A program made the position numbers and the translations under genes. The notes beneath the pieces were generated by a model. That model saw only the letters and a program-made list of their open reading frames with translations. It was not told the DNA's origin and ran no database searches. Below, piece after piece: positions 18,492 through 62,422 of a DNA stretch of 64,000 bases; the stretch's first letter is position 1; the number at the start of each line of letters is the position of its first letter. Source of the DNA: a virus; the IMG/VR virus record IMGVR_UViG_3300034073_002480, positions 64,001-128,000 of that record. One strand, written 5' to 3'.

Positions 18492-19018
18492 ATTTTTCTC
18501 TTGTACGTGCTAGAAAACATTCAGCATCAAATAGATCAAAATCAAAAAAGATAGCTCTAAAAACTTGACGAACAGATCTACGATCTATAATCTTTTTATC
18601 AGGGTTTTTCTTTTCATGTTCAAAGATTTTAGATTGAAAATACTCACAAACCTCCTCGTAACGATTAACCTTATGCTGCCAAATATCTGCATCTACTTGG
18701 TTGTCAAAGAAACGATCATCTGATGTTTTATAACCAGTAACCACAGATACTTGCTTGTAAACTGGTCTTGCAATGTTACTCATATACTTTTATATCTCTT
18801 TTTCTAGCTTGTTCTGTTCTACTCTTGGTTTTACATACAGGACAGATTTCATTGTCTGAAACTAAACTTGCATCACAAGCATAGCACCAGTATTTTTTAG
18901 AATACCGAGGTTTTTTCTTTTTCTCACGATTTGTGAGTGGTATTTGTAATTCATCATCCATTCTCTTCTTCAGATATAATCTCAAAATCTTCAACATCGT
19001 AGTCATCAATAAAAGCAA
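18472..19018 (-). other. Two small hypothetical CDS (18472..18783; 18776..19018 with a CxxC...CxxC zinc ribbon)
   Basis: CYAC ... CPVC in the second ORF. Confidence 0.6.
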
Positions 19019-19126
19019 CAGAAAAATCAGAAAATATCTGTTTCTTTAAATCTTTTTGGTTCTCGGCTTCATACTCTTTAGTAACTACACCAGTAAATAT
19101 GACACGGACTTTGTATGTTTTCATAG

Positions 19127-20776
19127 TTAAAAAGAATCAGGACTTTGTGGATCGATCTCTTTTTCTTCTACGGTCACAGGTGTTTCCACCACAGGAACAT
19201 AGAAAGAAAGGTTGTCTTCTGATACCCATTCATCACCATTGTCAGCTAGTTGAAAATAGAATAGTTTTTCTTTTTCTTCTAACTTAGTGGCAACAACATC
19301 AACAACTAAACCATTATAAACAACAGAGTCACCTACAGCATAAGGACAAGTTGTAGATAGTGCAACAACAAGATTACGTTCATCTTGTGACAACAAACGC
19401 ATCACATTTTGTTTGAGTTGCAAAGACCAATCTTTTGTAAGGATACGAAGATCCTGTCTAGTTTTACACCGCACTAATGCATCTGCAAGTCGTGATTCAT
19501 TGCTTATATGAACTAACAATGATGATTCGTTGTCAAACCATGCACTGTTTTCAGGTATAGAATACACAAACTCTTTGTTTACACGATCAACCTCAATAAT
19601 ACACATTTCTCGTAGCTTGATTAGTGCATCCTCGTATTCAGAGCATTTGTTTATACCTAATTTAGCGCGTAATTCTTTATTAGTATATTTTTGGTGTGGT
19701 CGTGATGTTAATACACGGATGATTTTATTTGACCATCCTTCGATAACAGGGTCAGCATCTTTTTCAGATTCGATCTCCATATGCCATCTACCACCTTCAC
19801 CACGAACCATAGCTAAAACTAAAGTACGTGGTAAACCGTTACGAGGATAAGACTGCATTTCTGTTCTAGTTTGACCTTGTTCATTTTTAATCTTTGCAAA
19901 CTTAAATAAACCATCATTTGCAGATGCAATAGAAGAGTGTCCTGAAGCACCACCAACATCCTTAGCACTCTTATTAGCATGGTGAATACAGATCCCTGTA
20001 CAAAAGCCAGATTTAATAAACACCTGTTGTAGACGATACATTAGTGGCGCTACTTCTGCACTGTTTTCAGATATACCAGTACCTGATAACATCATACGCA
20101 AACTATCAAAAGTTACAAGAGATGGTTTGAAATCATAAATCATCTGCTCTAGCCTTGGAATATCTTCTAGAATATTAAATGACTTCTCAATCCTATATAC
20201 ATCACTGTATTTAAGGAAGGTAGCATTATCATCATCAAAACCCCGTTCAACCATCTTCATTGCAGCTAAAGACGCACCTTCCTCTAAATTAAAATCAAGT
20301 ACTTTACCCTTTCTAACAGGTATACCTAAAAAACTACCAGAGACAAGAATTGAATACTTTAAGTCTAGAATGTATGTTGACTTGCCACTTTTGCCAGATC
20401 CGAAGAAAAGATAAAAAGCAGCAGGTTGAAAAAATGATGGAACTAACCACTCACCTGCTTCACGACCTGCTTCAAGTATTTCACGAAAACTATAGGAACT
20501 TTTAAAGTTAGCGTCTAAAGTTGACTCTTCAAAGTCTAAATGCTCTTTGATCTGTTTTTCTTTGAATCCAAATTTTTCTACCCAACGCTCATATAATTGC
20601 ACAATAATCTGGTCAGTAACAATCTTACGTTGCAAACCTTTATATTGAGCAATAGTGGCTCTCGCCTTTGCTAAATCCGCAGTATAAGCATCTAGAAAAC
20701 TATGTGTTGGCACAGTCTGTATAATAGGTTCTTCTTCATAAACTTGTTCAGAATAATCAATAAATTCTTCATCCAC
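19127..20776 (-). CDS. RecA-fold AAA_25/RepA-like replicative helicase
   Basis: Walker A GSGKSGKS, LEE, Walker B VTFDSL, IHHANKS, GASGHSSI; adjacent to primase. Confidence 0.85.
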   Translation of the reverse strand: MDEEFIDYSEQVYEEEPIIQTVPTHSFLDAYTADLAKARATIAQYKGLQRKIVTDQIIVQLYERWVEKFGFKEKQIKEHLDFEESTLDANFKSSYSFREILEAGREAGEWLVPSFFQPAAFYLFFGSGKSGKSTYILDLKYSILVSGSFLGIPVRKGKVLDFNLEEGASLAAMKMVERGFDDDNATFLKYSDVYRIEKSFNILEDIPRLEQMIYDFKPSLVTFDSLRMMLSGTGISENSAEVAPLMYRLQQVFIKSGFCTGICIHHANKSAKDVGGASGHSSIASANDGLFKFAKIKNEQGQTRTEMQSYPRNGLPRTLVLAMVRGEGGRWHMEIESEKDADPVIEGWSNKIIRVLTSRPHQKYTNKELRAKLGINKCSEYEDALIKLREMCIIEVDRVNKEFVYSIPENSAWFDNESSLLVHISNESRLADALVRCKTRQDLRILTKDWSLQLKQNVMRLLSQDERNLVVALSTTCPYAVGDSVVYNGLVVDVVATKLEEKEKLFYFQLADNGDEWVSEDNLSFYVPVVETPVTVEEKEIDPQSPDSF

Positions 20777-25272: not shown

Positions 25273-25905
25273 TTAAGACATCGATATCAAGTTACGCACA
25301 ACCTGTTTTTGTTTCCAATGCTTTGCAGTGTCTTGTATATGCCCTTGCCTTACAAACTTACCTATGTTCAAACGAAAGTCCTCATAACCAAAAGAACCAG
25401 CATTGCGTATGACATAACCTTCAGTCACAGAGAAATCCAACTTTCTTTCTATGTCTCGTATCTTCTGGCGATCATACAACCCATAGTATAAAACAGGTAC
25501 AGGGGTAACGCCTAACAACGCAAACCAGTCTAAAGTGTCAGACCATGATAAACATTGATTAGAATCGTTCCATATAGAAAAACCGTAGAAATAAGTGGTG
25601 AGGTTATTATAAAAAATACTGTGTTTAGCATATACGTTTTCACCGCAAAGTCGCCAATTTACAGGGATATCATGTTGGAAGCCAGTGAATAACTGTTTAA
25701 CCCAATCTCTACTTTCATGACTAGCAGAGTCTATACTCCTAGCATGAGAATAGTTAGAGTAAACTGTTGTATTTTCACCATCTAGTTTCTCAGTAACAAC
25801 TACTGTCATACTTTCAAACTGTGTATCTGTTTGTAATGTTTTGTCATCACTAGTTGCACTTTGTGACCAAGGTAGATGATAAGTGCGTGGGTATTTAGTA
25901 TACAT
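25273..25905 (-). CDS. ATP-dependent RNA ligase (Rnl2-like nucleotidyltransferase domain)
   Basis: KYPRTYHLPWS, motif I TEKLDGEN, GENVYA, EGYVIR, KFVR. Confidence 0.9.
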   Translation of the reverse strand: MYTKYPRTYHLPWSQSATSDDKTLQTDTQFESMTVVVTEKLDGENTTVYSNYSHARSIDSASHESRDWVKQLFTGFQHDIPVNWRLCGENVYAKHSIFYNNLTTYFYGFSIWNDSNQCLSWSDTLDWFALLGVTPVPVLYYGLYDRQKIRDIERKLDFSVTEGYVIRNAGSFGYEDFRLNIGKFVRQGHIQDTAKHWKQKQVVRNLISMS

Positions 25906-29985: not shown

Positions 29986-30046
29986 AATAACACCATAGAA
30001 AAAACAAAAGACGCTGCCGAAACAACATCTTTCTTTTATTTATAAA

Positions 30047-30118
30047 TAGGCGCGGTTGGATTCTAACCAACATACCATCTGTTATGAGCAGAGTTCCTTG
30101 ACTGTCGGACACGCGCCC
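30047..30118 (-). tRNA. tRNA with CAU anticodon (elongator Met or Ile2); CCA not encoded
   Basis: Hand-folded: GGGCGCG-TG-TCC(GACAGTCAA)GGA-A-CTCTG(CTCATAA)CAGAT-GGTAT-GTTGG(TTAGAAT)CCAAC-CGCGCCT-A, 72 nt; lacks the initiator GGG/CCC anticodon stem. Confidence 0.85.
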
Positions 30119-30124
30119 AAATGA

Positions 30125-35604: not shown

Positions 35605-35864
35605 AGTTCACATCTGTGAGGATAAATTATAGGTTGCCAGAGAGAATTAACAGGATTAGGATCACAAATATCATACCAACAATTATTACAAGGGGAGTCT
35701 ATATGCCAATAACTATATCTCGAATGTCTTTCACCTTTATTATCTACAAAAGAAAACTCTTCTGATTCTTCATACCAAGCCGTATAAACAGAACCTTCAT
35801 AGTAAAATAAAATATGAGTACCATCTTTTGGAGCAGTATCTAGTGTTTGCCAGTTATTTGTCAT
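35601..35864 (-). CDS. DUF551-like protein
   Basis: NWQTLDTAPKDGTH...LWQPI. Confidence 0.8.
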   Translation of the reverse strand: MTNNWQTLDTAPKDGTHILFYYEGSVYTAWYEESEEFSFVDNKGERHSRYSYWHIDSPCNNCWYDICDPNPVNSLWQPIIYPHRCEL

Positions 35865-36955
35865 AACAAGTAGTCCTTTATCATCGAAACAACTTCTTCT
35901 TCTATGGTTTGACGGTCTGGTGTACGTGGTAGCTTTGTGTTGTTTTTTGCTGTTTCGAGGTCTAACATCAAACCATCTACCTGTACCATCAAAGCACCGT
36001 ATTCGACTTCACCATTCCGTATAGATCTGATATAATCAGCATCACCAGCTACACGACGATCTGGTATTACACCCTGACCGTTCAAAATCTCGATACCAGA
36101 TTTTAACAAACGATAAGCATGACCAGCATGTTTCGCGTCCATTCCACATTTTTCTTCTATGGCAGCACGTTTACTATTCCTGTTTGCTTTCCAACTATGA
36201 AACGCATCATATTCTTGCTTAGCTTGCCTATAGCGTTGAGTATTATGTAGTAAAGTCATAAACTCATCTGTACTACGTGTGTAATACTGTACAGCATCTA
36301 ACAATTCAGGTTTGATTTTATACTGCTTTAATACACTCTTGAAATCAATGTGTGCAAATATTTCATCACGGATACTATGGTATTGTGCCGCGTCATCAAT
36401 CAGAATGTAAAGAAACTCCAAGAAAGCGTTTAACTGTTCTTTGCGTAGTGGGTTGTCCTCAAGACCATAATCTTTAGGATTAGGTGGTGTATTAAAGAAG
36501 TCGGTATTAGCATGGTAGGCTTGCAACCAACCTCTGTGTGTTTTTACACGTTTGATTTGTGCATAAGCATAACCTGAGTAGCTATGGTAAACCTTCGTAG
36601 AAAGAAACAACTCACGTAATGCAATAAGACGATCTGCTAGTTGTGTTTTTACAACATAATGTTCAGATGCAACCCACAATAGTTCCAGAATATTCGGGTT
36701 GTTGAGTAAAGCTAAATGCACATATTTCTTGAGATTGTAAATCTGTGAATCTGTGTTGGTTAAAACAGGATATAGACAGTCAGGATCTACAAAAGAGTCA
36801 AGCTGGTCGAAATTAGAATCACCGAAGAAATACTGAACTGGTGGTATACAGATCCCCTTGTAGTCGTAATCAGACTCAGGGTTGTCAATACCGTACAAAC
36901 GAGAACCTGTAAGTGTTAGGAGTATTGTACAGGATTCAACTTCTTTTCTTTTCAT
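35861..36955 (-). CDS. Pol-beta superfamily nucleotidyltransferase (YcgL/RlaP-like)
   Basis: GSRLYGIDNPESDYDYKG, NNPNILELLW, YSGYA..Q, KHAGHAYRLL, IRNGE. Confidence 0.88.
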   Translation of the reverse strand: MKRKEVESCTILLTLTGSRLYGIDNPESDYDYKGICIPPVQYFFGDSNFDQLDSFVDPDCLYPVLTNTDSQIYNLKKYVHLALLNNPNILELLWVASEHYVVKTQLADRLIALRELFLSTKVYHSYSGYAYAQIKRVKTHRGWLQAYHANTDFFNTPPNPKDYGLEDNPLRKEQLNAFLEFLYILIDDAAQYHSIRDEIFAHIDFKSVLKQYKIKPELLDAVQYYTRSTDEFMTLLHNTQRYRQAKQEYDAFHSWKANRNSKRAAIEEKCGMDAKHAGHAYRLLKSGIEILNGQGVIPDRRVAGDADYIRSIRNGEVEYGALMVQVDGLMLDLETAKNNTKLPRTPDRQTIEEEVVSMIKDYLL

Positions 36956-40081: not shown

Positions 40082-40879
40082 ATGTATAGTTTGCAAGACT
40101 GCTATAAAACACCGAAAGATTCAGATCTTTGTAAGTTTGGCGTTTATTGTATTGAAAATATTAATAGTGGTAAGCAGTATATAGGAAGTACATCTGGTAG
40201 TTTTTCTAAAAGATTTCGAGAACATTTCAACGCTTTAAAAAATAACAAACATCATTCTCAGATATTGCAAAGAAGTTTCAACAAACATGGTATTGAGTCT
40301 TTCTCTTTAAAAATTTTAGAAGAAGTTGATACGAAAGATTATAAAATACTAAGAGCTAGAGAGCAGTATTATTTAGACACTCTAAAACCTGAGTACAACA
40401 TACTTCCTAATGCTGAATCTTTTTCTGGTTACAAATATTCTGAAGAACGTAAGAAGAAACAGGTTAATGTTCTACGTTCTAAGTTTGCCGCTAAAGATTG
40501 TGGTGTTAAGTACCACCCTACAGATGGTAAATGGAGTGTACATATCTCCGTTACAGATTTTAAAATGAGTAATCTAGGTTATTTTAAAACTAAAGAGGAA
40601 GCACTAACAGCTAGGAAACAAGCAGAGGTTGTATTCTGGACGGAGGAGTTTGATAATCTGCCTACAGAAGAAAAGAAAATAATTGCTAAAAAATACAAGA
40701 AATCTATAGTCCGTGCTGATTGCACATCTGGTTACAGGTACATATCCATAAGTAGTGCCAGAATAGGCGGTAAATGTTGGAAATTTTTCTATAAACGAAA
40801 GCTGATACAGTCTTTCTATACACTTGAAGAGGCTGTTGACTTCAGAGACAAATACCTCGAAGAAAACAACCTCGTCTAA
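40082..40879 (+). CDS. Free-standing GIY-YIG homing endonuclease with AP2-like DNA-binding domains
   Basis: GVYCIENINSGKQYIGST, RFREH, REQYYLD, YNI; AP2-like GVKY...KW...LGYFKTKEEA..AR and SGYRYI...FYTLEEAVDFRD. Confidence 0.92.
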   Translation: MYSLQDCYKTPKDSDLCKFGVYCIENINSGKQYIGSTSGSFSKRFREHFNALKNNKHHSQILQRSFNKHGIESFSLKILEEVDTKDYKILRAREQYYLDTLKPEYNILPNAESFSGYKYSEERKKKQVNVLRSKFAAKDCGVKYHPTDGKWSVHISVTDFKMSNLGYFKTKEEALTARKQAEVVFWTEEFDNLPTEEKKIIAKKYKKSIVRADCTSGYRYISISSARIGGKCWKFFYKRKLIQSFYTLEEAVDFRDKYLEENNLV

Positions 40880-48715: not shown

Positions 48716-48994
48716 TTATAGCGAATCTAGAAATGTAGCAAACCTAGCTTCAATAACTGCAATCTGTTGAAGTCTTGTAATAGCTTCTTGAGTAGTTTGA
48801 AAGTATTCACGTTTTTGGAATGACAAAAAGAAATTTTCATCATCAGCCCACACAGAAATATTAGGATCTTGTGTATCAAACGACTTCACCTTCTCTCGCA
48901 TCTCTGGTGTGTAACCATCAAAGACAAAAGATTTGGCGTAGTCGGTTTTCTTGTTAGACTCCCATTTATGGGATGATAGTTTTATGTTAATCAC
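48716..48994 (-). CDS. Hypothetical protein
   Basis: 92 aa; C-terminus RLQQIAVIEARF resembles that of 63295..63621. Confidence 0.65.
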   Translation of the reverse strand: MINIKLSSHKWESNKKTDYAKSFVFDGYTPEMREKVKSFDTQDPNISVWADDENFFLSFQKREYFQTTQEAITRLQQIAVIEARFATFLDSL

Positions 48995-50370
48995 GACTCA
49001 ATCTCCTCTGTGTCAACATAGTCTGGTCGATCTTTCATAAACCCTTCCATAGCAAGAAAGTACCAGTTTTTCTCTTTCAAGAACCAAGTCTTACCTGCAT
49101 GATCAACACGTACAACTACACCTTCAGGGAATTGGTTAGGAAATGTGGATTGCAAAGACAAAGATTCAACATAACTGATTAAATCTTTAGCACCAAAACT
49201 AGATAAAGTTGGATGATAATTATGACTGACATGAAGTTCAGGTACATGATCTACACCTAGTTCAGCACATCTTGCCTTGACAGCATCCCACGATAGATCC
49301 CATTGGTAGCCATCCTCATTGGTGACAGCTATTCTGTACACATACGCTTTAGCTGTACCGTTAGGGACACCGTAGTTGTAAGTGATTTCAGAACCATACT
49401 GCTTAATGAACTTCTTGTCACCTGTTACTGCCGTATTATGAGGTGGCATTATATGCTTATCAGGAGCAACCCAACCTACAATCTCATAATACAGTGTCTC
49501 ACCTTTACGCAAAAACGGTAGCAAACGGTCAGCAATAGCCCAACGAAAGTCATCAGAGCCATAGTAGCCTGTATTACCACTAGCTTTCTTCAAGATGACA
49601 CGGCGAGTACCATTTTGAGGTATATAACCCTTGATGGTATGCTTTGTTTTCTCTTCTATGGTTTGTCTAAACCAATTCCACATTTTATTGACTGGTCGCC
49701 AAGGTGTGTTTACATTTAGATAACGAAAGACCGTAGAAATAAAGGGGTTGTAGACTTCTTGTTCTGTGTAAGCTAAACTAACCCGACCCGATGTTCCGTG
49801 CTGCTTCTCAGTAATAGTAACAGTAGCGCCAACAGGTATTTTGTGTATGTTCCTGCGGAAATTTTCTGTTTCTACATGTTCAGGGAATTGAATCTTAGCT
49901 TTCAACCGAGGTTTGTCTTTTTTGTTTGTGGTTTTTGCTAATCTTGTAGCTGGTGTTTCATACTTCTTACAGATTTCCACACCACCGATCTCTGTGAAAC
50001 CATAACCAGCTTGCAGAACAGAACGATCAAATTCTAGAAAATCAAGAGAAGACAAAGGCATCACTAAACCATTAGACTTGTAGGAACGTAAATTCAACGC
50101 TCTGATTCTACCATTAGGGTCGAGATAACCAGTACCAATTCGCTGACGCACACCATCAATTTCTTCAAAGCGCTCATATAAACCATTGGCTTCACAGTAT
50201 TCCTTTGACAAACAACCATCAGTTTCAAAAAACACAACAAGGTCGTCTGGTTTGTAGTTACCAATACCCACAACTACATGTGTATTGCAAACAACAGCTA
50301 TTTCTAACCGATCTGCGTTAGGGTGTGGGAGAATAGCTTGTACAGGTGTAATAATAGCTTGGTAAGACAT
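48991..50370 (-). CDS. RNA ligase, DRB0094-like, with N-terminal OB-like domain
   Basis: PHPNADRLEIA, LRSYKSNGLVMP, motif I TEKQHGTS, YEIVG, VPEL, EGVVVR, LKEK. Confidence 0.88.
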   Translation of the reverse strand: MSYQAIITPVQAILPHPNADRLEIAVVCNTHVVVGIGNYKPDDLVVFFETDGCLSKEYCEANGLYERFEEIDGVRQRIGTGYLDPNGRIRALNLRSYKSNGLVMPLSSLDFLEFDRSVLQAGYGFTEIGGVEICKKYETPATRLAKTTNKKDKPRLKAKIQFPEHVETENFRRNIHKIPVGATVTITEKQHGTSGRVSLAYTEQEVYNPFISTVFRYLNVNTPWRPVNKMWNWFRQTIEEKTKHTIKGYIPQNGTRRVILKKASGNTGYYGSDDFRWAIADRLLPFLRKGETLYYEIVGWVAPDKHIMPPHNTAVTGDKKFIKQYGSEITYNYGVPNGTAKAYVYRIAVTNEDGYQWDLSWDAVKARCAELGVDHVPELHVSHNYHPTLSSFGAKDLISYVESLSLQSTFPNQFPEGVVVRVDHAGKTWFLKEKNWYFLAMEGFMKDRPDYVDTEEIES

Positions 50371-53638: not shown

Positions 53639-54517
53639 TTAGACAGACCTCAGTGATGGATATAGGTTGATTTTAGTGTCACAAAACAAAGACCGTAGAA
53701 GAGAAGGTGGTATGTAACGGTCAAAAGTTTGCATTACTTGCCAACTCGGTGCTTGCTTGAAGACCTGCACAAGTTCATTGCAACTACGATCAGGGTTAAT
53801 CTTCTGTTCGTATAAGTCACATAAAGTATCTTGATAATCCCACAATGTTTCCTGTATATCTGCTGACAACTGGAAGTCCAAACGCAAAGCAAACTTCAAA
53901 GCTCGGAGGATACGTGTAGGATCAGCGCTAAAACGATCTATAGGACGACCTACAGTGTGGATGAATTTCTCTTCTATGTGTATGCGACCGTGATAAGGAT
54001 CGATAATACCCGATGTCATAGCATTTATAGATTTCCAGTAGTCTTCTGATCCAAAATGATTTCTGAAACGTACAGGATAATCAACCCACCACAAGTCTTC
54101 TAAGGACTCCAGTGGTATAGCCATAGCGTTCATTGTGTTGTCGCGCCTTGCCAGATCCTGTTCAATAGTAACGTCAGGTGTATTCACAACAGTAACAGGA
54201 ACTACATTATCTTGTGTATAGTCAGCATCAGCTTCGCGTCTTGCCAGTACAAAGTCAATTACTTGACCTGCAATCTTCGCTTTGATGACACCCATTTGCC
54301 AAGAAGTAGTGTTACTGTCATCAGGCATTTGATACGCTGACTGGCAGAAAAACAAATGGTGATATTCGGGAGCAGGTAGAATAACTTGTGCGCCGTTGTC
54401 AAGTAAAAACTCCAACAGCGAAGCATAAGTAGTACCTGTCACACAAATGTCAATGTCTTTTGTATGTTCACCAGTAAATAATGACCGAACGAAACCGCCA
54501 ACTAAGTAAAATTGCAT
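53639..54517 (-). CDS. tRNA nucleotidyltransferase (CCA-adding/poly(A) polymerase class II head)
   Basis: YLVGGFVR, DIDI, DLARRDNTMNAMA, DPYHG, RFSADPTRILRA. Confidence 0.9.
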   Translation of the reverse strand: MQFYLVGGFVRSLFTGEHTKDIDICVTGTTYASLLEFLLDNGAQVILPAPEYHHLFFCQSAYQMPDDSNTTSWQMGVIKAKIAGQVIDFVLARREADADYTQDNVVPVTVVNTPDVTIEQDLARRDNTMNAMAIPLESLEDLWWVDYPVRFRNHFGSEDYWKSINAMTSGIIDPYHGRIHIEEKFIHTVGRPIDRFSADPTRILRALKFALRLDFQLSADIQETLWDYQDTLCDLYEQKINPDRSCNELVQVFKQAPSWQVMQTFDRYIPPSLLRSLFCDTKINLYPSLRSV

Positions 54518-54671
54518 ATTAGTAAAAACCACACTACATCTATGTAAACAACAAGTCCAGCTATAATGATAATATCTGGATCAAATAGGTAAGAATCAGG
54601 TTTTGCCATAGCTGTATAGATGCCAACCATAGAAGAGAAGATCAGCATATATAAAATCTGTATTTCTACGT

Positions 54672-54992
54672 TCATACACACCCCAACAATATATCACAGC
54701 AGTCATCATAAACAGATGGTGGATATATACCACTAGAGCGCATATTAGTGTCAAATTTCACTTCAGTCCCGTCAACCAGAAAAGTAACGTAAGGTTGAAG
54801 ATGCTTATACTCTTTATACAGTAAGGCACGGAACATGTACAATACTAACTCTTGACCAGTAACGAGGTAAGGGTTTTCAACACCTTCAGTTATATAGCCC
54901 AAATAAGTTTCACAAACTTCTTTAATTTTGAAGTCCTGAAAGCCATAATCAGATGGTGGTACGGAACGATAGTCTACAGTTAATTTACTCAT
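54672..54992 (-). CDS. Hypothetical protein, paralog of 26229..26561
   Basis: TGQELVL...EYKHLQPYVTFLVDG. Confidence 0.65.
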   Translation of the reverse strand: MSKLTVDYRSVPPSDYGFQDFKIKEVCETYLGYITEGVENPYLVTGQELVLYMFRALLYKEYKHLQPYVTFLVDGTEVKFDTNMRSSGIYPPSVYDDCCDILLGCV

Positions 54993-55671
54993 CAGTTGCT
55001 AACCATTGCTCTATATAGTTTTTGTCTTGTGAAAAAATCGGTATCTGCCGATCTACAAACCAACCGTTTTCACTTTTGATGACACAACGACCACGTTTAT
55101 AATAAGGTTCAAAGTCGTTGAAGTTTATCTTGTGTTCTTGCCACAACATTTCTTGGATCTGAGCGCAAGATTTATTTTGTAGTTGATTGTGAGAAAAATG
55201 TGCTTGACCTAACATCTGGATAGCATTACGTGTAGCATCTTGCTGCCTATGGTAGAAATAGTTATTGACTTCAGCTTCAGGCAGAACAAAAGCACGAGAA
55301 TCAAAATAAACTTGACCACCTAAATAAGAAGAGAAAGCTACAGATGCAATAGCTGCTGAGATCGACACAATCTTTTGGATATTGTTGTCAAACCAAGCTT
55401 CAGAGTTAAGCTTTTTGTAATTGTGTAGTAGCAAAGAGATTTCATCTGACTGCACAAATTGCACAACACTGGTTTGTACTTCTTCAGCTAAAACTAATGC
55501 TGTGTGATCCATAGCTGCCATAAAATCAGTGTCCCAAGGTCGCTGCATATTACGGGTTAATGTGTGAGCTGCTCTGATGTCAAGACGAACTACAAGCGGC
55601 AACCTGCGAGTTAAATACTTTCTTTCTACGTTCTCGTATGTTTTCATACGGTCGCCTAAGCTATTTTTCAT
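54985..55671 (-). CDS. thg1: tRNA(His) guanylyltransferase Thg1-like 3'-5' polymerase
   Basis: RMKTYE, VVRLD..AAH..T, QSDEISL, FDSRAF, RQQDATRN, SH.QL.NK, KRG. Confidence 0.93.
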   Translation of the reverse strand: MKNSLGDRMKTYENVERKYLTRRLPLVVRLDIRAAHTLTRNMQRPWDTDFMAAMDHTALVLAEEVQTSVVQFVQSDEISLLLHNYKKLNSEAWFDNNIQKIVSISAAIASVAFSSYLGGQVYFDSRAFVLPEAEVNNYFYHRQQDATRNAIQMLGQAHFSHNQLQNKSCAQIQEMLWQEHKINFNDFEPYYKRGRCVIKSENGWFVDRQIPIFSQDKNYIEQWLATDE

Positions 55672-56970: not shown

Positions 56971-57174
56971 CTACTTAACCGTAAAAATATGCAATACTAA
57001 GACAATATTGGATACACCTAACATCACTGCTTGTAATAGAATACCTTCTTCTGATCTTGCTCTACCAGAGAACAAAACCATACTTGTGTACATCATAACA
57101 GCATAATCAACTGAAAAAACAATAGCTTGTTGTATAGACATCTTAATTTTTAGCTCCACATACAGTACATTCAC
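56971..57174 (-). CDS. Small membrane protein
   Basis: Two hydrophobic segments. Confidence 0.45.
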   Translation of the reverse strand: MNVLYVELKIKMSIQQAIVFSVDYAVMMYTSMVLFSGRARSEEGILLQAVMLGVSNIVLVLHIFTVK

Positions 57175-57295
57175 CTGTGGTTTGATCTACTTCACCGCCA
57201 GACTGTTCTTTGTTACCATTAGAATCTTTACGCCCAGTTTCACGTGTGCAATAATAAGTCATAATTTGTTAATCCTCTAATTTAAGTGTACAAAT

Positions 57296-57320
57296 AAAAA
57301 GCAGGGTTGTTAGCCCTGCT
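57296..57320 (-). terminator. Intrinsic terminator
   Basis: AGCAGGGC-taaca-ACCCTGCT followed by TTTT. Confidence 0.8.
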
Positions 57321-57331
57321 GTGTGTATTAT

Positions 57332-59638
57332 TTATGCTTCTGTGTATTTGATCTCAATGTCAAAAGCCTTGTAGAAAGACTCTAATAACCGAAACCAAGT
57401 AGGATGTGGTTGGTTGTCTACCATAAGACCTAACCGAGCAGGGTTGAACAAATCTTGGACTTCCTCTACTTTAAAAGTAGGATTAGTACGTTTCAACATA
57501 TCTTTCTGTTGGTTAGGGGTAAGACACTCCCATGTCTCATCAGATACAAGCTTCTGAGTATACAAACGTAGTAAAACATGGCGGAGTTCCAACCAAGTTT
57601 GTTTTGTTGCGTCACCTAAAGAGCCTATGACTATCCCTTTCAGATATTCATATATGACAGGTAAAGATACAGGTTGGAGATTTTTACTGTCACAGAAAAC
57701 AGGCGACCCGCAACGTACAGTCTGCTTCGCCATAAATTTGATGTGGTCTTCCACCGTGTATTTATTACGATTTTGCTTCACACCAGATTTTTTTGTCTTT
57801 GGTGTTTCGAGTTGCAACCATTCTGCATGATTTTTCTGTAACCACTTATGGCATCGTGTTACAATCTCGTTGTAGTCCTTAAGCAACAGCAAACAGTCAG
57901 GGTTTGTTTGGAGTTCTACTATCGGTGTATAACTGTCAATAATTCTACGGAACATAGGATTGAAGTCACCACGACCATTTACAGACCCTAATACACCATT
58001 CTGGTATCGCAAGTCACAAGCGGAAAAAGCACGACAAGCTGCTTGGATCTCTCTTGTTTTGTCAAGAGGATCAGCCAATAAGCGTAGTATATGTTTGCCT
58101 TTTTGTCTTACGACAGTTTTATAGTTGTCTACGCGAGAATCGTAATCCTCACACTTGTAAACCGCACCCATAGAAGAGAAATGAGCTTTGCCAAGTAGTA
58201 TAGACTCAGACGACCAGCTACCATCTTTGAGGCGAATATCCATCCATACACGGTTAGTTTTATCTACACTGTTGTTGTACTGTGAACCAGTGTCAGCGTG
58301 TGAAAGACCTCTTGCCGTAGATTGCATTGTGTCCTTTGTATGCTGAATCGCAGCAATACGAAACCTACAAACTGTCTCTTGTACAACAGATTTGCCGTTC
58401 TGTGTTAACAACGAACCATCAGGTCGCAGTTTGTGGATTAGTGCTACAAAAGAGTCGCTATACCCACCATTAAACATCTGCGCTTGAAAACCTTCAAAGC
58501 CATTGCGTACTTTGTACTTAGGCTCTTGCTTCTCTACATGTTGTGGCTTCTCTGTCCTTGACAGAAAATGTGTAGTATATTTTGCAGTTGTTGGGTTGTA
58601 GGACTGAATTGAACAGAATGACCATAGATGGTTTGCCACAGGTTTATCTGCAAGAACCATTTCAATGCGAGTTACATCAATATCAACACCATCTTCTGTT
58701 GTGTACTTAGCCGCAGTGTGTTCTGGGACATAAGGTAGATAAAAGAGTTCTTGGTTGAAAACCTCTTGCTTTTCTGTAGCGTTGTATTCCAACGGTGAGG
58801 ATGACTTACGACTATTGGTATTTAACGCTGCTCTGCCACGTATAACCAAAGTCTCTTTCTTGGAAACCCGTAGTTCGTTTTTGTTGTTGAGTGTTGGGTG
58901 GTCAGCAGGGTTGTACACAACCTTTGGCAACCAATCTACTTTGATAAGAAGTGGTGTGTCAAGAGGAATAGGATTTTGTAACTCGAACTCCTTGTTAATA
59001 GACTGCAACCATTCTGTAATAGGTTGTTCTGAGAGCCAATTTGTATAGGCTTCGGGGTCAATGTGATCTGCTTGTCTTACCTTTTGGTCACGTACATCTT
59101 GACCATTGAACACCAACCTATGCTCCACAAGTGTGTTGTCATCTTGGAGAGGTACAATGACATCCTCAACCGTAGAAGATAAAGGTTGTGGTTCATCGAC
59201 AATTTCTACTTGTGGTTTTTTGGACTCCACGAAATACAACCATTGTTGTTTTGCTGCTGTATCATTGGACACATTGACAGTGAAACCCATGTTAGCTTTG
59301 TAGAAATCAAAGAACTCATCTGCAAGTTCTGGGTATTCCTTCAAAGCAGCAAAAATAAGTTTCTTACAACCTTTGTCAGAGTCAACAGGGAAGTCAATAA
59401 TAGGTACAGCAGGTTTTTCTTCTACGGTCTGTACTGTTGCTTCCTGTGTTTGCTCTTGTTCTACAAATAACAACCATTGTTGGTAGCTTGTTTCATTGGA
59501 AGCTCTTGAAAATGGTTGTCCAGTATTCTGTTTGTAAAAATCAAAAAATTGTTGTTTAGTTTCAGGATGATCTGTTAAATGAAACTGCACAAGCTTCTTA
59601 GCACCTTGGATACCGTTAGGGAAGTCAATTGTAGGCAT
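57332..59638 (-). CDS. Large hypothetical protein (768 aa) with duplicated N-terminal domain
   Basis: IDFP...G.KKL....L...PE....FFDFYK.N.G.....SN.T...QQWL.FVE occurs twice. Confidence 0.85.
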   Translation of the reverse strand: MPTIDFPNGIQGAKKLVQFHLTDHPETKQQFFDFYKQNTGQPFSRASNETSYQQWLLFVEQEQTQEATVQTVEEKPAVPIIDFPVDSDKGCKKLIFAALKEYPELADEFFDFYKANMGFTVNVSNDTAAKQQWLYFVESKKPQVEIVDEPQPLSSTVEDVIVPLQDDNTLVEHRLVFNGQDVRDQKVRQADHIDPEAYTNWLSEQPITEWLQSINKEFELQNPIPLDTPLLIKVDWLPKVVYNPADHPTLNNKNELRVSKKETLVIRGRAALNTNSRKSSSPLEYNATEKQEVFNQELFYLPYVPEHTAAKYTTEDGVDIDVTRIEMVLADKPVANHLWSFCSIQSYNPTTAKYTTHFLSRTEKPQHVEKQEPKYKVRNGFEGFQAQMFNGGYSDSFVALIHKLRPDGSLLTQNGKSVVQETVCRFRIAAIQHTKDTMQSTARGLSHADTGSQYNNSVDKTNRVWMDIRLKDGSWSSESILLGKAHFSSMGAVYKCEDYDSRVDNYKTVVRQKGKHILRLLADPLDKTREIQAACRAFSACDLRYQNGVLGSVNGRGDFNPMFRRIIDSYTPIVELQTNPDCLLLLKDYNEIVTRCHKWLQKNHAEWLQLETPKTKKSGVKQNRNKYTVEDHIKFMAKQTVRCGSPVFCDSKNLQPVSLPVIYEYLKGIVIGSLGDATKQTWLELRHVLLRLYTQKLVSDETWECLTPNQQKDMLKRTNPTFKVEEVQDLFNPARLGLMVDNQPHPTWFRLLESFYKAFDIEIKYTEA

Positions 59639-60473: not shown

Positions 60474-60694
60474 ATTTTTGTTCTGCCCTTAGATGGTTTT
60501 GTACGGTAATCACCACTGAAATTATACTGATTTTAGATTTATTTCTAGTGGTTTGTGTGCTATAATAATGAGCGAAAGTGAGTGAGTGAACCTGATAAGG
60601 CTTGTTTAAAGTTTTATCAGGTGAGTAAATAAACGGTGGTTTGTGTAACAAAGCTTCGGAAATACGAGTGCCATTGGTGTGTCTACTTTTGTTA

Positions 60695-61099
60695 TCAACT
60701 TAAAGTAAGTTTTGCCCAGTTGTCTAGTAAACCATTTTGTTGAGCTTTCACTAAAATAGCTGCTTGTGTAGTTGCAGTGATTGCAATGTTTTTCTGTTTA
60801 AGTTCAGTAATTGTTTCATCTAAATCTCCAAGTGAAACAGATTGTTCCACAAGAAAACCGAAATCAGCGCAATAACTACCTTGAGGTAAATCCAAAGCTT
60901 CGTCAAAACCGTGTTTAGTAGAATCCCAAACTGTAACCTTTTGCTTCACAAAAGGTAGTTCTAAAGATATAAGCTCAGCATCTGTTAAATCAGCCATAGA
61001 ACGTAAAAGAGAAGCAAGGTTGGAGGCAACAGGTGATTTTACGTTAGAAGCTAACTCAGCCCACTCTGTAAGCTCTGCTGACATAATGTTTGGTTTCAT
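60695..61099 (-). CDS. Hypothetical protein
   Basis: 134 aa ORF with AAGGA RBS upstream. Confidence 0.7.
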   Translation of the reverse strand: MKPNIMSAELTEWAELASNVKSPVASNLASLLRSMADLTDAELISLELPFVKQKVTVWDSTKHGFDEALDLPQGSYCADFGFLVEQSVSLGDLDETITELKQKNIAITATTQAAILVKAQQNGLLDNWAKLTLS

Positions 61100-61214
61100 G
61101 TTTACTCATCCTTATTTATATTGCTAAACACTTCAATTGTCTGTCCCAATACTAGAATAATTAAAGGACTACACACAAACAAAGTTACTAAAACGACTAA
61201 AGTTGTCATTACCT

Positions 61215-61531
61215 TGTTTTTGTTTTGCTGGACTACCCCTATCCCTGCTGTTGTTGTAGCAAGTTACCGACTTTGGCACGGTTACAGATAACTCAATTCT
61301 GTAGTTAGGTTACAGCAATCTCTTAGTTCGCAGCTACTTTAGCTTTGACAGGTCGTAAGCAGTGACAAGCGAAGACGCTGTGTGATTTACAACCGTGAGA
61401 TCCGAAAGAACTACTTACCACTCGCTGTATGACAGCCACCTGTAACTCTTTAACAGGTCGGTATTGAGGGTTGGCGCGTTACCGCTACCTTTCACCCGTT
61501 GGGCTTTGCTCTTTGCTTGCCCTCTCTCGAT
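61215..61531 (-). ncRNA. Candidate highly structured ncRNA or 5' leader (~320 nt)
   Basis: No listed ORF, locally GC-richer; nested stems TACCGAC/GTCGGTA (61265/61457) and CACGGTT/AACCGTG (61277/61391); several hairpins including GCG-GTAA-CGC; own promoter. Confidence 0.6.
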
Positions 61532-61537
61532 GTAACT

Positions 61538-61566
61538 AATATAAACTGATGACTAGAGAATAGCAA
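61538..61566 (-). promoter_or_regulatory. sigma70-type promoter TTGCTA-N17-TATATT
   Basis: Plus strand tagcaa at 61561-61566 and aatata at 61538-61543; predicted TSS near 61531. Confidence 0.7.
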
Positions 61567-61785: not shown

Positions 61786-62175
61786 TCAAACAGGCAAAGA
61801 AACTCGTTTAATTTTCCCTAAAAAGTCAGTTTGTGCCTGAGCAGCTATATTTTGATAAACTGCTTGTTGTTGTTTTTCAATTTCTGCCAGAACTGCATCT
61901 AAACCACGTTCTAGAGCAGCTAATCTTCTCTGTTTTGTTCGTTCTGACTGGTTATGTCGTTCAATGGCAGCAGCTTGTTGTGCTGCTTTTGCAACAGCAA
62001 GGTCAGCATAGAACTTGCAAACACGGTTGTGAAATGTAGCACGACCTCGATCTGCTAGATTGTGAGGGACAGTGTACCACAACAACACACGACCACTACG
62101 TTTTACTACCAAAGCAAACTCTACAACGTTTGCAGACTTTGTTTCGTGTAGAACGTGATACTTAGATACTTGCAT
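61786..62175 (-). CDS. Hypothetical coiled-coil protein (start at MQVSKY)
   Basis: ATG 62175 overlaps the end of the HicB-like gene. Confidence 0.65.
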   Translation of the reverse strand: MQVSKYHVLHETKSANVVEFALVVKRSGRVLLWYTVPHNLADRGRATFHNRVCKFYADLAVAKAAQQAAAIERHNQSERTKQRRLAALERGLDAVLAEIEKQQQAVYQNIAAQAQTDFLGKIKRVSLPV

Positions 62176-62422
62176 TTTTAAACTCCACATAATCATCAAC
62201 AGCGTTTTCAAAATCAACTTGTAGTTGGTCAGGATCATAGCCTTGAAAAGTAATAATGTCAGTAGTATTTAACAACCGACCGTAGTATAAACCTGTTTCA
62301 GGGTAGTATTCATAGTGACCTACCCAACCTTTATAACTACTTGTGACCACGTTCAGCCTCCCTGAAGTAAATGACAAGAAAAACACAAACAAGCAGAAAT
62401 ATAACAGTCTCAAGGGAGACAC
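62162..62422 (-). CDS. Orphan HicB-like antitoxin (N-terminal domain only; start possibly GTG near 62350)
   Basis: YKGWVGHYEY..ETGLYYGRLLNTTDIITFQG.....LQVDFENAVDDYVEF is the HicB pattern; no HicA, no DNA-binding tail. Confidence 0.8.
   Translation of the reverse strand: MSPLRLLYFCLFVFFLSFTSGRLNVVTSSYKGWVGHYEYYPETGLYYGRLLNTTDIITFQGYDPDQLQVDFENAVDDYVEFKNASI

Follow-up and report, generated by a model that had tools for sequence, protein, structure and literature searches.

Solved large structured RNAs are mostly ribozymes, the cores of ribonucleoproteins or machines acting on the polymerase or the ribosome, and few RNAs of bacteria or phages are known to combine large size with numerous conserved helices and junctions that do not vary. 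GOLLD and ROOL, two such RNAs associated with phages, are larger than the RNA considered here, while put, of phage HK022, is about 70 nt long and comprises two stem-loops. This put RNA is presented as a phage nascent RNA that acts alone on early transcripts, countering pausing and termination (PMC9378689). The conAn2 RNAs are described as cis-acting elements of 260-600 bp with which long operons of conjugative plasmids are headed, namely, those of pLS20 and others from Gram-positive hosts (PMC8191782).

The present report concerns a window of 64,000 nt, spanning positions 64001-128000 within a virus record of 138,722 bp, in which positions 61531-61225 (minus strand) are a conserved, non-coding RNA gene composed of three serial multi-helix domains and lying outside the families of Rfam 15. 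The product, encoded by a freshwater phage, is very probably a genuine structured RNA, and probably a new kind of phage RNA. As with conAn2, which is described as cis-acting as RNA, independent of terminator sequence and poorly conserved beyond close relatives, a large structured non-coding region heads a long operon of co-directional genes in a mobile element (PMC8191782). Unlike the phage RNA, which precedes the genes of its unit and for which no ConAn1-like protein is known, conAn2 follows the gene of its partner ConAn1 (PMC8191782); the host range also differs, and the likeness is one of description. The comparison with put is likewise by description and sets some 15 helices in three domains against that small element. 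GOLLD and ROOL are also large, elaborately folded RNAs without known function, with the name GOLLD recording a lake origin (PMC12286853). These two are, however, Rfam families to which cmscan gave no match here, and the present RNA has no tRNA neighbor. Finally, phage group I introns (RF00028) offer a similar size, homing endonucleases in the phage and a GNRA loop, yet at this locus the model finds no match, exons are absent and a P3/P7 pseudoknot lacks support.

Results

Genomic Setting of the RNA

The minus strand carries nearly all of the genes from approximately 52 kb to the right end, with the RNA region occupying one of the larger gaps between ORFs. At 45-50% (61300-61550), the G+C content of this region stands against 38% for the genome and 25-26% for the spacer found just upstream. 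Minus-strand ORFs within the stretch are 38 aa or shorter and are disrupted by indels between variants, in agreement with an earlier, sequence-only reading in which no ORF had been noted there. The DNA polymerase of the phage is at most 47% identical to polymerases of Aeromonas, Pseudaeromonas and Pseudomonas phages.

The cumulative G-C skew reaches its minimum at 121-122 kb of the genome (about 57000-58000 in the window), some 3.5 kb from the RNA, and is flat from there to the right end, though the genes stay on the minus strand. The replication genes are found about 40 kb from the RNA. The phage also encodes a set of RNA-repair and tRNA enzymes, namely, two RNA ligases, a RlaP-family nucleotidyltransferase, a PolyA_pol head domain of the CCA-adding type and a Thg1-like tRNA-His guanylyltransferase, with the corresponding genes (25273-25905, 35861-36955, 48991-50370, 53639-54532 and 54985-55671) all being on the minus strand. 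Within the minus-strand gene array, a GIY-YIG nuclease gene is found on the plus strand (40082-40879), which suggests a free-standing homing endonuclease.

Relatives and Conservation of the RNA

An index of public sequencing runs listed 20 rows from 14 studies containing part of the stretch, mostly from freshwater, lake and river samples. Contigs from three of these studies, comprising two DNA runs (X14 and X12) and two RNA runs (X15 and X17), were compared and contain the RNA or close relatives thereof. In addition, a metagenome scan with an alignment of homologs of the 134-aa protein encoded downstream yielded a single locus, the 2,032-nt contig L003, which begins inside the RNA at n83 (where n = 61541 minus the window coordinate) and extends past its end. 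L003 is the sole aligned homolog and covers n83-318, such that the 5' domain of the RNA is represented by close relatives only.

Over the RNA, the window and L003 share 91.8% identity (179 of 195 aligned positions, with 30 gap columns), as compared to 76.4% for the 134-aa gene, 82.3% for the 232-aa gene and 79.5% for a spacer at the DNA level. The X14 and X12 sequences are close relatives, with the listed flank contigs differing by 0-17% (the longest X14 flank contig has 13 differences over its 454 nt); the RNA itself presents 23 differences over 247 nt in these relatives, clustered in two hairpins. The similarity to L003 stops near n318 and X15 and X17 diverge at 61219, so that similarity ends near 61219 in all three. 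The two RNA-run contigs, both from one study, span 61219-61422 (X15; 799 nt, depth 40.5) and 61219-61312 (X17; 418 nt, depth 57.8) and continue from the RNA into downstream sequence unlike that of the window. These contigs reveal no start, end or strand and may be DNA. Neither X15 nor X17 offers cover over n1-110 and most of the flanking genes, regions in which the relatives differ, so that this gap is uninformative; one small X15 contig (166 nt, depth 3.7) lies at 61789-61829. In X12, one contig joins 61543 to 61801 and another joins 60688 to 61219. These joints, with sides of 25 and 29 letters, provide weak hints of a conserved block at 61219-61543 that starts at the -10 box.

Broader searches returned no further relatives. 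In the GenBank phage collection, a blastn search with 1.8 kb gave no match at 1e-5, and the RNA alone, at E-values up to 10, gave only short matches inside protein genes, with E-values of at least 1. In IMG/VR, nothing was retrieved via three single neighboring proteins, via the alignment of 134-aa protein homologs or via two exact conserved blocks, while a loop-plus-junction pattern returned 11 loci, none of which could be aligned to the RNA. GTDB genomes contained no homolog of the RNA as sought with the same protein alignment and with a 21-mer.

A Three-Domain Fold With Compensated Changes

The RNA proper is taken as n10-n316, about 307 nt (61225-61531, minus strand), with its start predicted from the -10 box and its 3' end set where the closing region of domain III finishes. 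Folded without constraints, n10-316 has a free-energy minimum of -87.8 kcal/mol, the structure of which is identical to that reached by enforcing the supported hairpins and comprises three serial domains, each with its own closing helix.

Domain I (n12-138; 61403-61529), as delineated by the free-energy fold, gives a mononucleotide-shuffle z of -2.6 and contains the closing helix CGAGAGA/UCUUUCG, a GGGC/GCCC hairpin, a GGGU..ACCC hairpin with a GUAA loop and a three-way junction of UACCG/UGGUA, ACCUGU/ACAGGU and GCUGU/ACAGC. In the predicted closing helix, the change of 61526 from C to T (G15 to A) in X14 and X12 turns a G.U pair into A-U. The last stem of the junction, hairpin Hd (GCUGU-CAU-ACAGC; n105-117, 61424-61436), is CUUGC-AUA-GCAAG in L003, with three of its five pairs doubly changed. 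Domain II (n139-224; 61317-61402) consists of the closing helix GAUCUC/GAGAUU, hairpin He and an AGCUA/UAGCU hairpin. He (GGUUGU/ACGACC; n147-190, 61351-61394) carries a variable tip at n153-184 (61357-61388), replaced by a 6-nt loop in L003 and by other hairpins in X14 (with 11 substitutions), X12 and X15. The base helix GGUUGU/AC(G/A)ACC is kept across the variants, with G187 being A in L003 such that U.G becomes U-A.

In domain III (n225-314; 61227-61316), the end of which coincides with the end of conservation, the closing helices GCUG/CAGC and ACCU/GGGU surround hairpins Hg, Hi and Hh. Hg (UACAGA-AUUGAGUUA-UCUGUA; n238-258, 61283-61303) exists in three stem versions with a conserved loop. 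Its stem is UACAAG/CUUGUA in L003, where two pairs are doubly changed, and UGUAAG/CUUACA in X14 and X12, where ten differences at 61282-61302 leave the loop intact and doubly change four pairs, two of them in common with L003. A GUUACAG/CUGUAAC pairing offered by the free-energy fold of a longer fragment is contradicted by these variants. Hi (ACCG(U)GC-CAAA-GUCGGU; n259-275, 61266-61282), found by RNAalifold, presents two changes in L003, namely, C261-G273 to U-A and G264.U271 to G-C, while in X14 the change of A259 to G gives G.U. Hh (CUUGCU-ACAACAAC-AGCAGG; n278-297, 61244-61263) shows a one-sided change in L003 (U279.G296 to U-A) and two changed loop letters in X15 and X17. The helices that are predicted by the model and found to be invariant are the three closing helices of domains II and III, GGGC/GCCC, GGGU/ACCC with its GUAA loop, ACCUGU/ACAGGU and AGCUA/UAGCU. 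The junctions show 100% conservation along stretches of 28-29 nt, and GAGUU is common to two hairpins, each having a 6-bp stem and a 9-nt loop. The invariant junctions, covarying stems and shared GAGUU loops suggest a conserved partner or tertiary fold.

The covariation data consist of two aligned sequences and of difference tables from close relatives, material that does not permit an R-scape statistic. Where the window and L003 differ, each of the 15 stem positions bearing a substitution still pairs, with nine further substitutions falling in loops or junctions. The portion of the model visible in this alignment comprises 66 pairs, in which all 122 of 122 cells are paired, six pairs are doubly changed, three are changed on one side and none is broken. 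Ten of 500 shuffles did as well, while the slid controls all gave zero doubly changed pairs. When restricted to six hairpins (34 pairs, all cells paired, five doubly changed), 13 of 500 shuffles and none of the slid controls were equal. Counting L003 and X14/X12 together, eight distinct pairs are doubly changed, five show one-sided changes that keep the pair and none is broken.

G.U pairs account for eight of the 94 pairs in the model and fit the minus strand only. The minus (sense) strand folds at -87.8 kcal/mol, as compared to -81.2 kcal/mol for the antisense strand, and the mirror fold on the other strand is weaker by 7.5 kcal/mol. From these G.U pairs and the weaker mirror fold, it follows that selection acts on the minus strand and at the level of RNA. 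The folding energy is itself ordinary, with z-scores of -0.82 (336 nt) and -0.91 (307 nt; 16 of 100 shuffles being equally stable). The sequence-only reading had named an energy typical of shuffled sequence as an outcome that would count against a functional RNA, and such an energy was found; as the covariation outweighs it, the structured RNA reading stands.

With respect to the fold, every stem named in that reading occurs in the sequence, and two of them drew support from the variants, namely, GCTGT/ACAGC, with three doubly changed pairs in L003, and TACAGA/TCTGTA, with two in L003 and four in X14/X12. The nested architecture into which they had been placed fared less well. Its two long-range stems, TACCGAC/GTCGGTA and CACGGTT/AACCGTG, present nine pairs visible in L003, of which none is doubly changed, one is changed on one side and one is broken, and they exclude the local hairpins GGTTGT/AC(G/A)ACC and ACCGTGC/GTCGGT. 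These local hairpins, by contrast, show a replaced tip of variable length, one doubly changed pair and two one-sided changes, with Hi supplanting the long-range stems. AGCG/CGCT, also proposed, lies inside the variable He tip and is absent from L003. The data thus fit three serial domains of local helices instead, while the long-range stems could form in an alternative conformer.

Comparison With Known RNA Classes

The Infernal search against Rfam called for by the earlier reading gave no match on the RNA at E-values up to 10. With the 4,227 models of Rfam 15, no match was obtained at gathering threshold over the whole window and none overlapped the RNA at E-values up to 10, whether in 1,001 or in 361 nt. 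A weak match to DUF2815-RNA (E = 0.28), far below threshold, was seen outside the RNA at the start of the 134-aa gene. The proposal of a structured, non-coding minus-strand RNA of no recognized class is accordingly borne out by the compensated stem changes, the strand-specific G.U pairs, conservation above that of the flanks and the lack of a match in Rfam.

Presumed likenesses to the RNase P S-domain, to a tmRNA tag and to the P7-P3-P8 region of group I introns each failed their own test. A search for bacterial RNase P (RF00010) gave no match at E-values up to 10 in the phage, while the control search matched 11 of 14 genomes. ARAGORN identified only a tRNA-Met gene (30046-30119), the sole tRNA gene in the window, leaving no tRNA or tmRNA at the locus. 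With the group I model (RF00028), 12 candidates were scored in the phage's own genome, none at E-values up to 10. Upstream of the RNA, no ORF of at least 25 aa that could serve as exon reads into it and no tRNA is present, and the flanks differ between relatives. As for a P3/P7 core, the candidate 3' strand of P3 pairs locally, with covariation, and one of the two visible pairs of the long-range version is broken.

A riboswitch or leader specific to one gene was likewise rejected, since the window, L003 and the relative represented by X15 each have a different first ORF downstream; moreover, no terminator before the next ORF and no conserved pairing with either ribosome-binding site is visible. 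Nor does the locus fit the leader of a type I toxin mRNA, given that a 35-aa hydrophobic ORF is found in the window only, while L003 contains an acidic 64-aa ORF. The RNA does have the position sought in an antitermination element, being promoter-proximal and upstream of terminators within its own unit.

Promoter, Terminators and Transcription Unit

The strong upstream terminator of the sequence-only reading is present as an intrinsic terminator (61762-61733, minus strand; 12-bp stem with five G-C pairs, followed by a T run) that closes the preceding unit. The promoter described there is also present, as a sigma-70-like element at 61566-61538 on the minus strand (TTGCTA at 61566-61561, a 17-nt spacer and TATATT at 61543-61538), yet matches the consensus at only nine of 12 positions and is not significant by itself. 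Promoter-like sites number 13 in 3 kb, as compared to 7.7 +/- 3.1 in shuffles, and are thus not significantly enriched; three of them are found in the AT-rich spacer upstream of the RNA. A second TTGCTA..TATATT site (50521-50492) shows no wider likeness. The start predicted from the -10 box, at about 61531, falls two bases ahead of the first helix. Promoter-driven, early expression of the RNA, as had been put forward, is an inference, with the contigs of the two RNA-seq runs of one study as the sole evidence on expression.

Because the RNA comes directly after a terminator and an AT-rich, promoter-bearing spacer, it opens a transcription unit, presumably an early or a middle one. No terminator-like site was found between 61225 and the next ORF, with a ribosome-binding site and ORF beginning some 25 nt or less after the RNA. 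Further into the unit, an intrinsic terminator (59687-59666, minus strand) lies 28 nt before the ATG (59638) of a gene encoding a 768-aa protein and is also kept in L003, where it is found at the end of the contig. The 28-nt gap is too short for a promoter and, therefore, any transcript of the 768-aa gene must read through this terminator.

Neighboring Genes

In the window, the RNA is followed by an ORF encoding a hydrophobic 35-aa product (61102-61209, minus strand) that is not conserved in relatives. At this position, L003 contains a different, acidic ORF of 64 aa and, in X15, the unlike sequence after the RNA contains a third, again different ORF. Next in the unit headed by the RNA comes the gene for the 134-aa protein (60695-61099, minus strand), which has 18 homologs in metagenomes and for which AlphaFold2 gives a model with a pLDDT of 83.9. 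The model has no known fold, as Foldseek returned no PDB match at E-values up to 0.001. In L003, the homologous gene contains an in-frame TGA (L003:729-731) where relatives encode Ser (WD-S-SKH), which could be due to a pseudogene, an assembly error or recoding. The 768-aa orphan protein (57332-59638, minus strand) has 15 homologs among 1.84 billion representative proteins and belongs to no family; its N-terminal segment appears twice, at about residues 1-60 and 80-140.

On the other side of the RNA, a HicB-like antitoxin gene (62162-62422, minus strand; PHROG 9151, E = 1.3e-11) overlaps the start of an ORF of 129-150 aa (61786-62238, minus strand) found just upstream of the 61762-61733 terminator. 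With the exception of this HicB-like gene, no PHROGs or Pfam family was assigned to the neighboring proteins at curated cut-offs, no meaningful sequence match was found for them in the PDB and a protein atlas returned nothing usable.

Discussion

The reading put forward here, to which we assign a probability of roughly 0.4, is that the RNA is a portable, promoter-proximal leader that would act in cis, either on the transcript to which it belongs or on the polymerase producing it, regardless of the genes that follow, possibly as an antiterminator. Processive antitermination or transcript protection would be the likeliest mechanism, with transcription from the RNA's promoter passing the 59687-59666 terminator and then the later terminators of the long co-directional array. 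A promoter and a large RNA that are indifferent to the following genes fit such a cis element. Indeed, a terminator and promoter-like sites precede the RNA and no terminator follows it, three different ORFs begin just after it in the window, L003 and the X15 relative, and the RNA-run contigs pass from the RNA straight into downstream sequence, though they are silent on transcription, strand and ends and may be DNA. The terminator at 59687-59666 is too close to the start of the 768-aa gene for a promoter to fit in between, but read-through there could be mere leakiness. As a large cis-acting antitermination RNA, conAn2 provides a precedent, yet the protein-independent put and EAR are, by the same account, far smaller (PMC8191782). 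Also to be set against a cis-acting leader are the ordinary folding energy (z = -0.9) and the single aligned homolog, which covers n83-318 and leaves the 5' domain to close relatives. Moreover, the fully conserved 28-29-nt junctions and elaborate fold suit a trans-acting ribonucleoprotein or ribozyme equally or better. As such, a processed, stable RNA of 300 nt, cut in the A-rich stretch after domain III and acting in trans as a ribonucleoprotein scaffold, as a decoy for a host factor or defense system or as a ribozyme, is a serious possibility, even if it falls short of an even chance. The invariance of the junctions while the stems covary and one tip is free to change, the self-contained domains, with conservation stopping right after the last helix, and the varying downstream genes, which leave no particular gene to be regulated, all speak for such an RNA; two GAGUU-sharing 9-nt loops on 6-bp stems would suit a repeated binding site, and the phage encodes many RNA-repair and tRNA enzymes. 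At the same time, the RNA has no terminator and no evident processing site, the neighboring proteins are without known family or fold and offered no partner, and the RNA-run contigs are continuous with downstream sequence. On balance, the cis-acting leader is narrowly favored over a trans-acting RNA.

Other explanations are improbable to differing degrees. The RNA could be an antisense regulator of late-region mRNAs that pairs with the mRNA of a homing endonuclease and that of the next ORF, a proposal we consider unlikely. A gene for a 527-aa GIY-YIG/HNH homing endonuclease adjoins the major head gene at positions 18634-20217 of the genome (L004:6635-8218). There, the plus strand at 19128-19144 of the genome (L004:7129-7145) is an exact 17-nt complement of n184-200, a match reached by none of 300 mononucleotide shuffles, and 1.3 kb further on, n229-278 is 80% complementary over 50 nt to 20417-20465 (L004:8418-8466), where the following ORF, of 74 aa, ends. 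Most of the matching RNA sequence is, however, inside helices, the 17-mer differs at three positions in L003 and belongs to a portion of the endonuclease coding sequence that is itself conserved, and the 50-nt patch keeps neither hairpin, resembles a decaying recombination fragment and is hence read as a recombination relic rather than as a target site. Less likely again is a replication-origin transcript, with the RNA priming or activating DNA replication, as RNA II does in ColE1 or as happens at the promoter-dependent origins of T4. While the promoter and structured RNA adjoin a spacer of 25% G+C and the skew minimum at 121-122 kb is only some 3.5 kb away, the change in skew is weak and may be a product of gene content, the AT-rich stretch is upstream and not downstream of the promoter, no iterons were seen and the replication genes are about 40 kb off. 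A group I-like or other mobile ribozyme or intron has a very small probability and is largely refuted. Size, sharp boundaries, the homing endonucleases in the genome and a presumed resemblance of part of the 3' region to the P7-P3-P8 layout point in this direction, but RF00028 found no match at E-values up to 10, the supposed P3 is replaced by a covarying local hairpin, the upstream flank holds stops in all frames and neither tRNA nor exons, and the RNA-run contigs contain no spliced joint. An equally small probability is given to a spacer, decayed gene or set of chance hairpins devoid of RNA function; a folding energy no better than that of shuffles is what these would give, yet the compensated changes, none of which breaks a pair, already contradict them, as do conservation above that of the flanking genes and a G+C island within an AT-rich spacer.

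Returning to the cis-acting leader and to its trans-acting rival, the RNA offers a testable structure and a defined genomic role, and is in either case a candidate for a new Rfam family. It is conceivable, if rather unlikely, that it represents a new class of large (about 300 nt), intricately folded phage RNA, be it a self-sufficient antiterminator several-fold larger than put or the core of a trans-acting ribozyme or ribonucleoprotein, that travels between freshwater phages with its own promoter. Were the RNA to act in trans, it would be a new phage ribonucleoprotein or decoy; were it an antitermination RNA, it would extend control of the polymerase by RNA alone beyond HK022.
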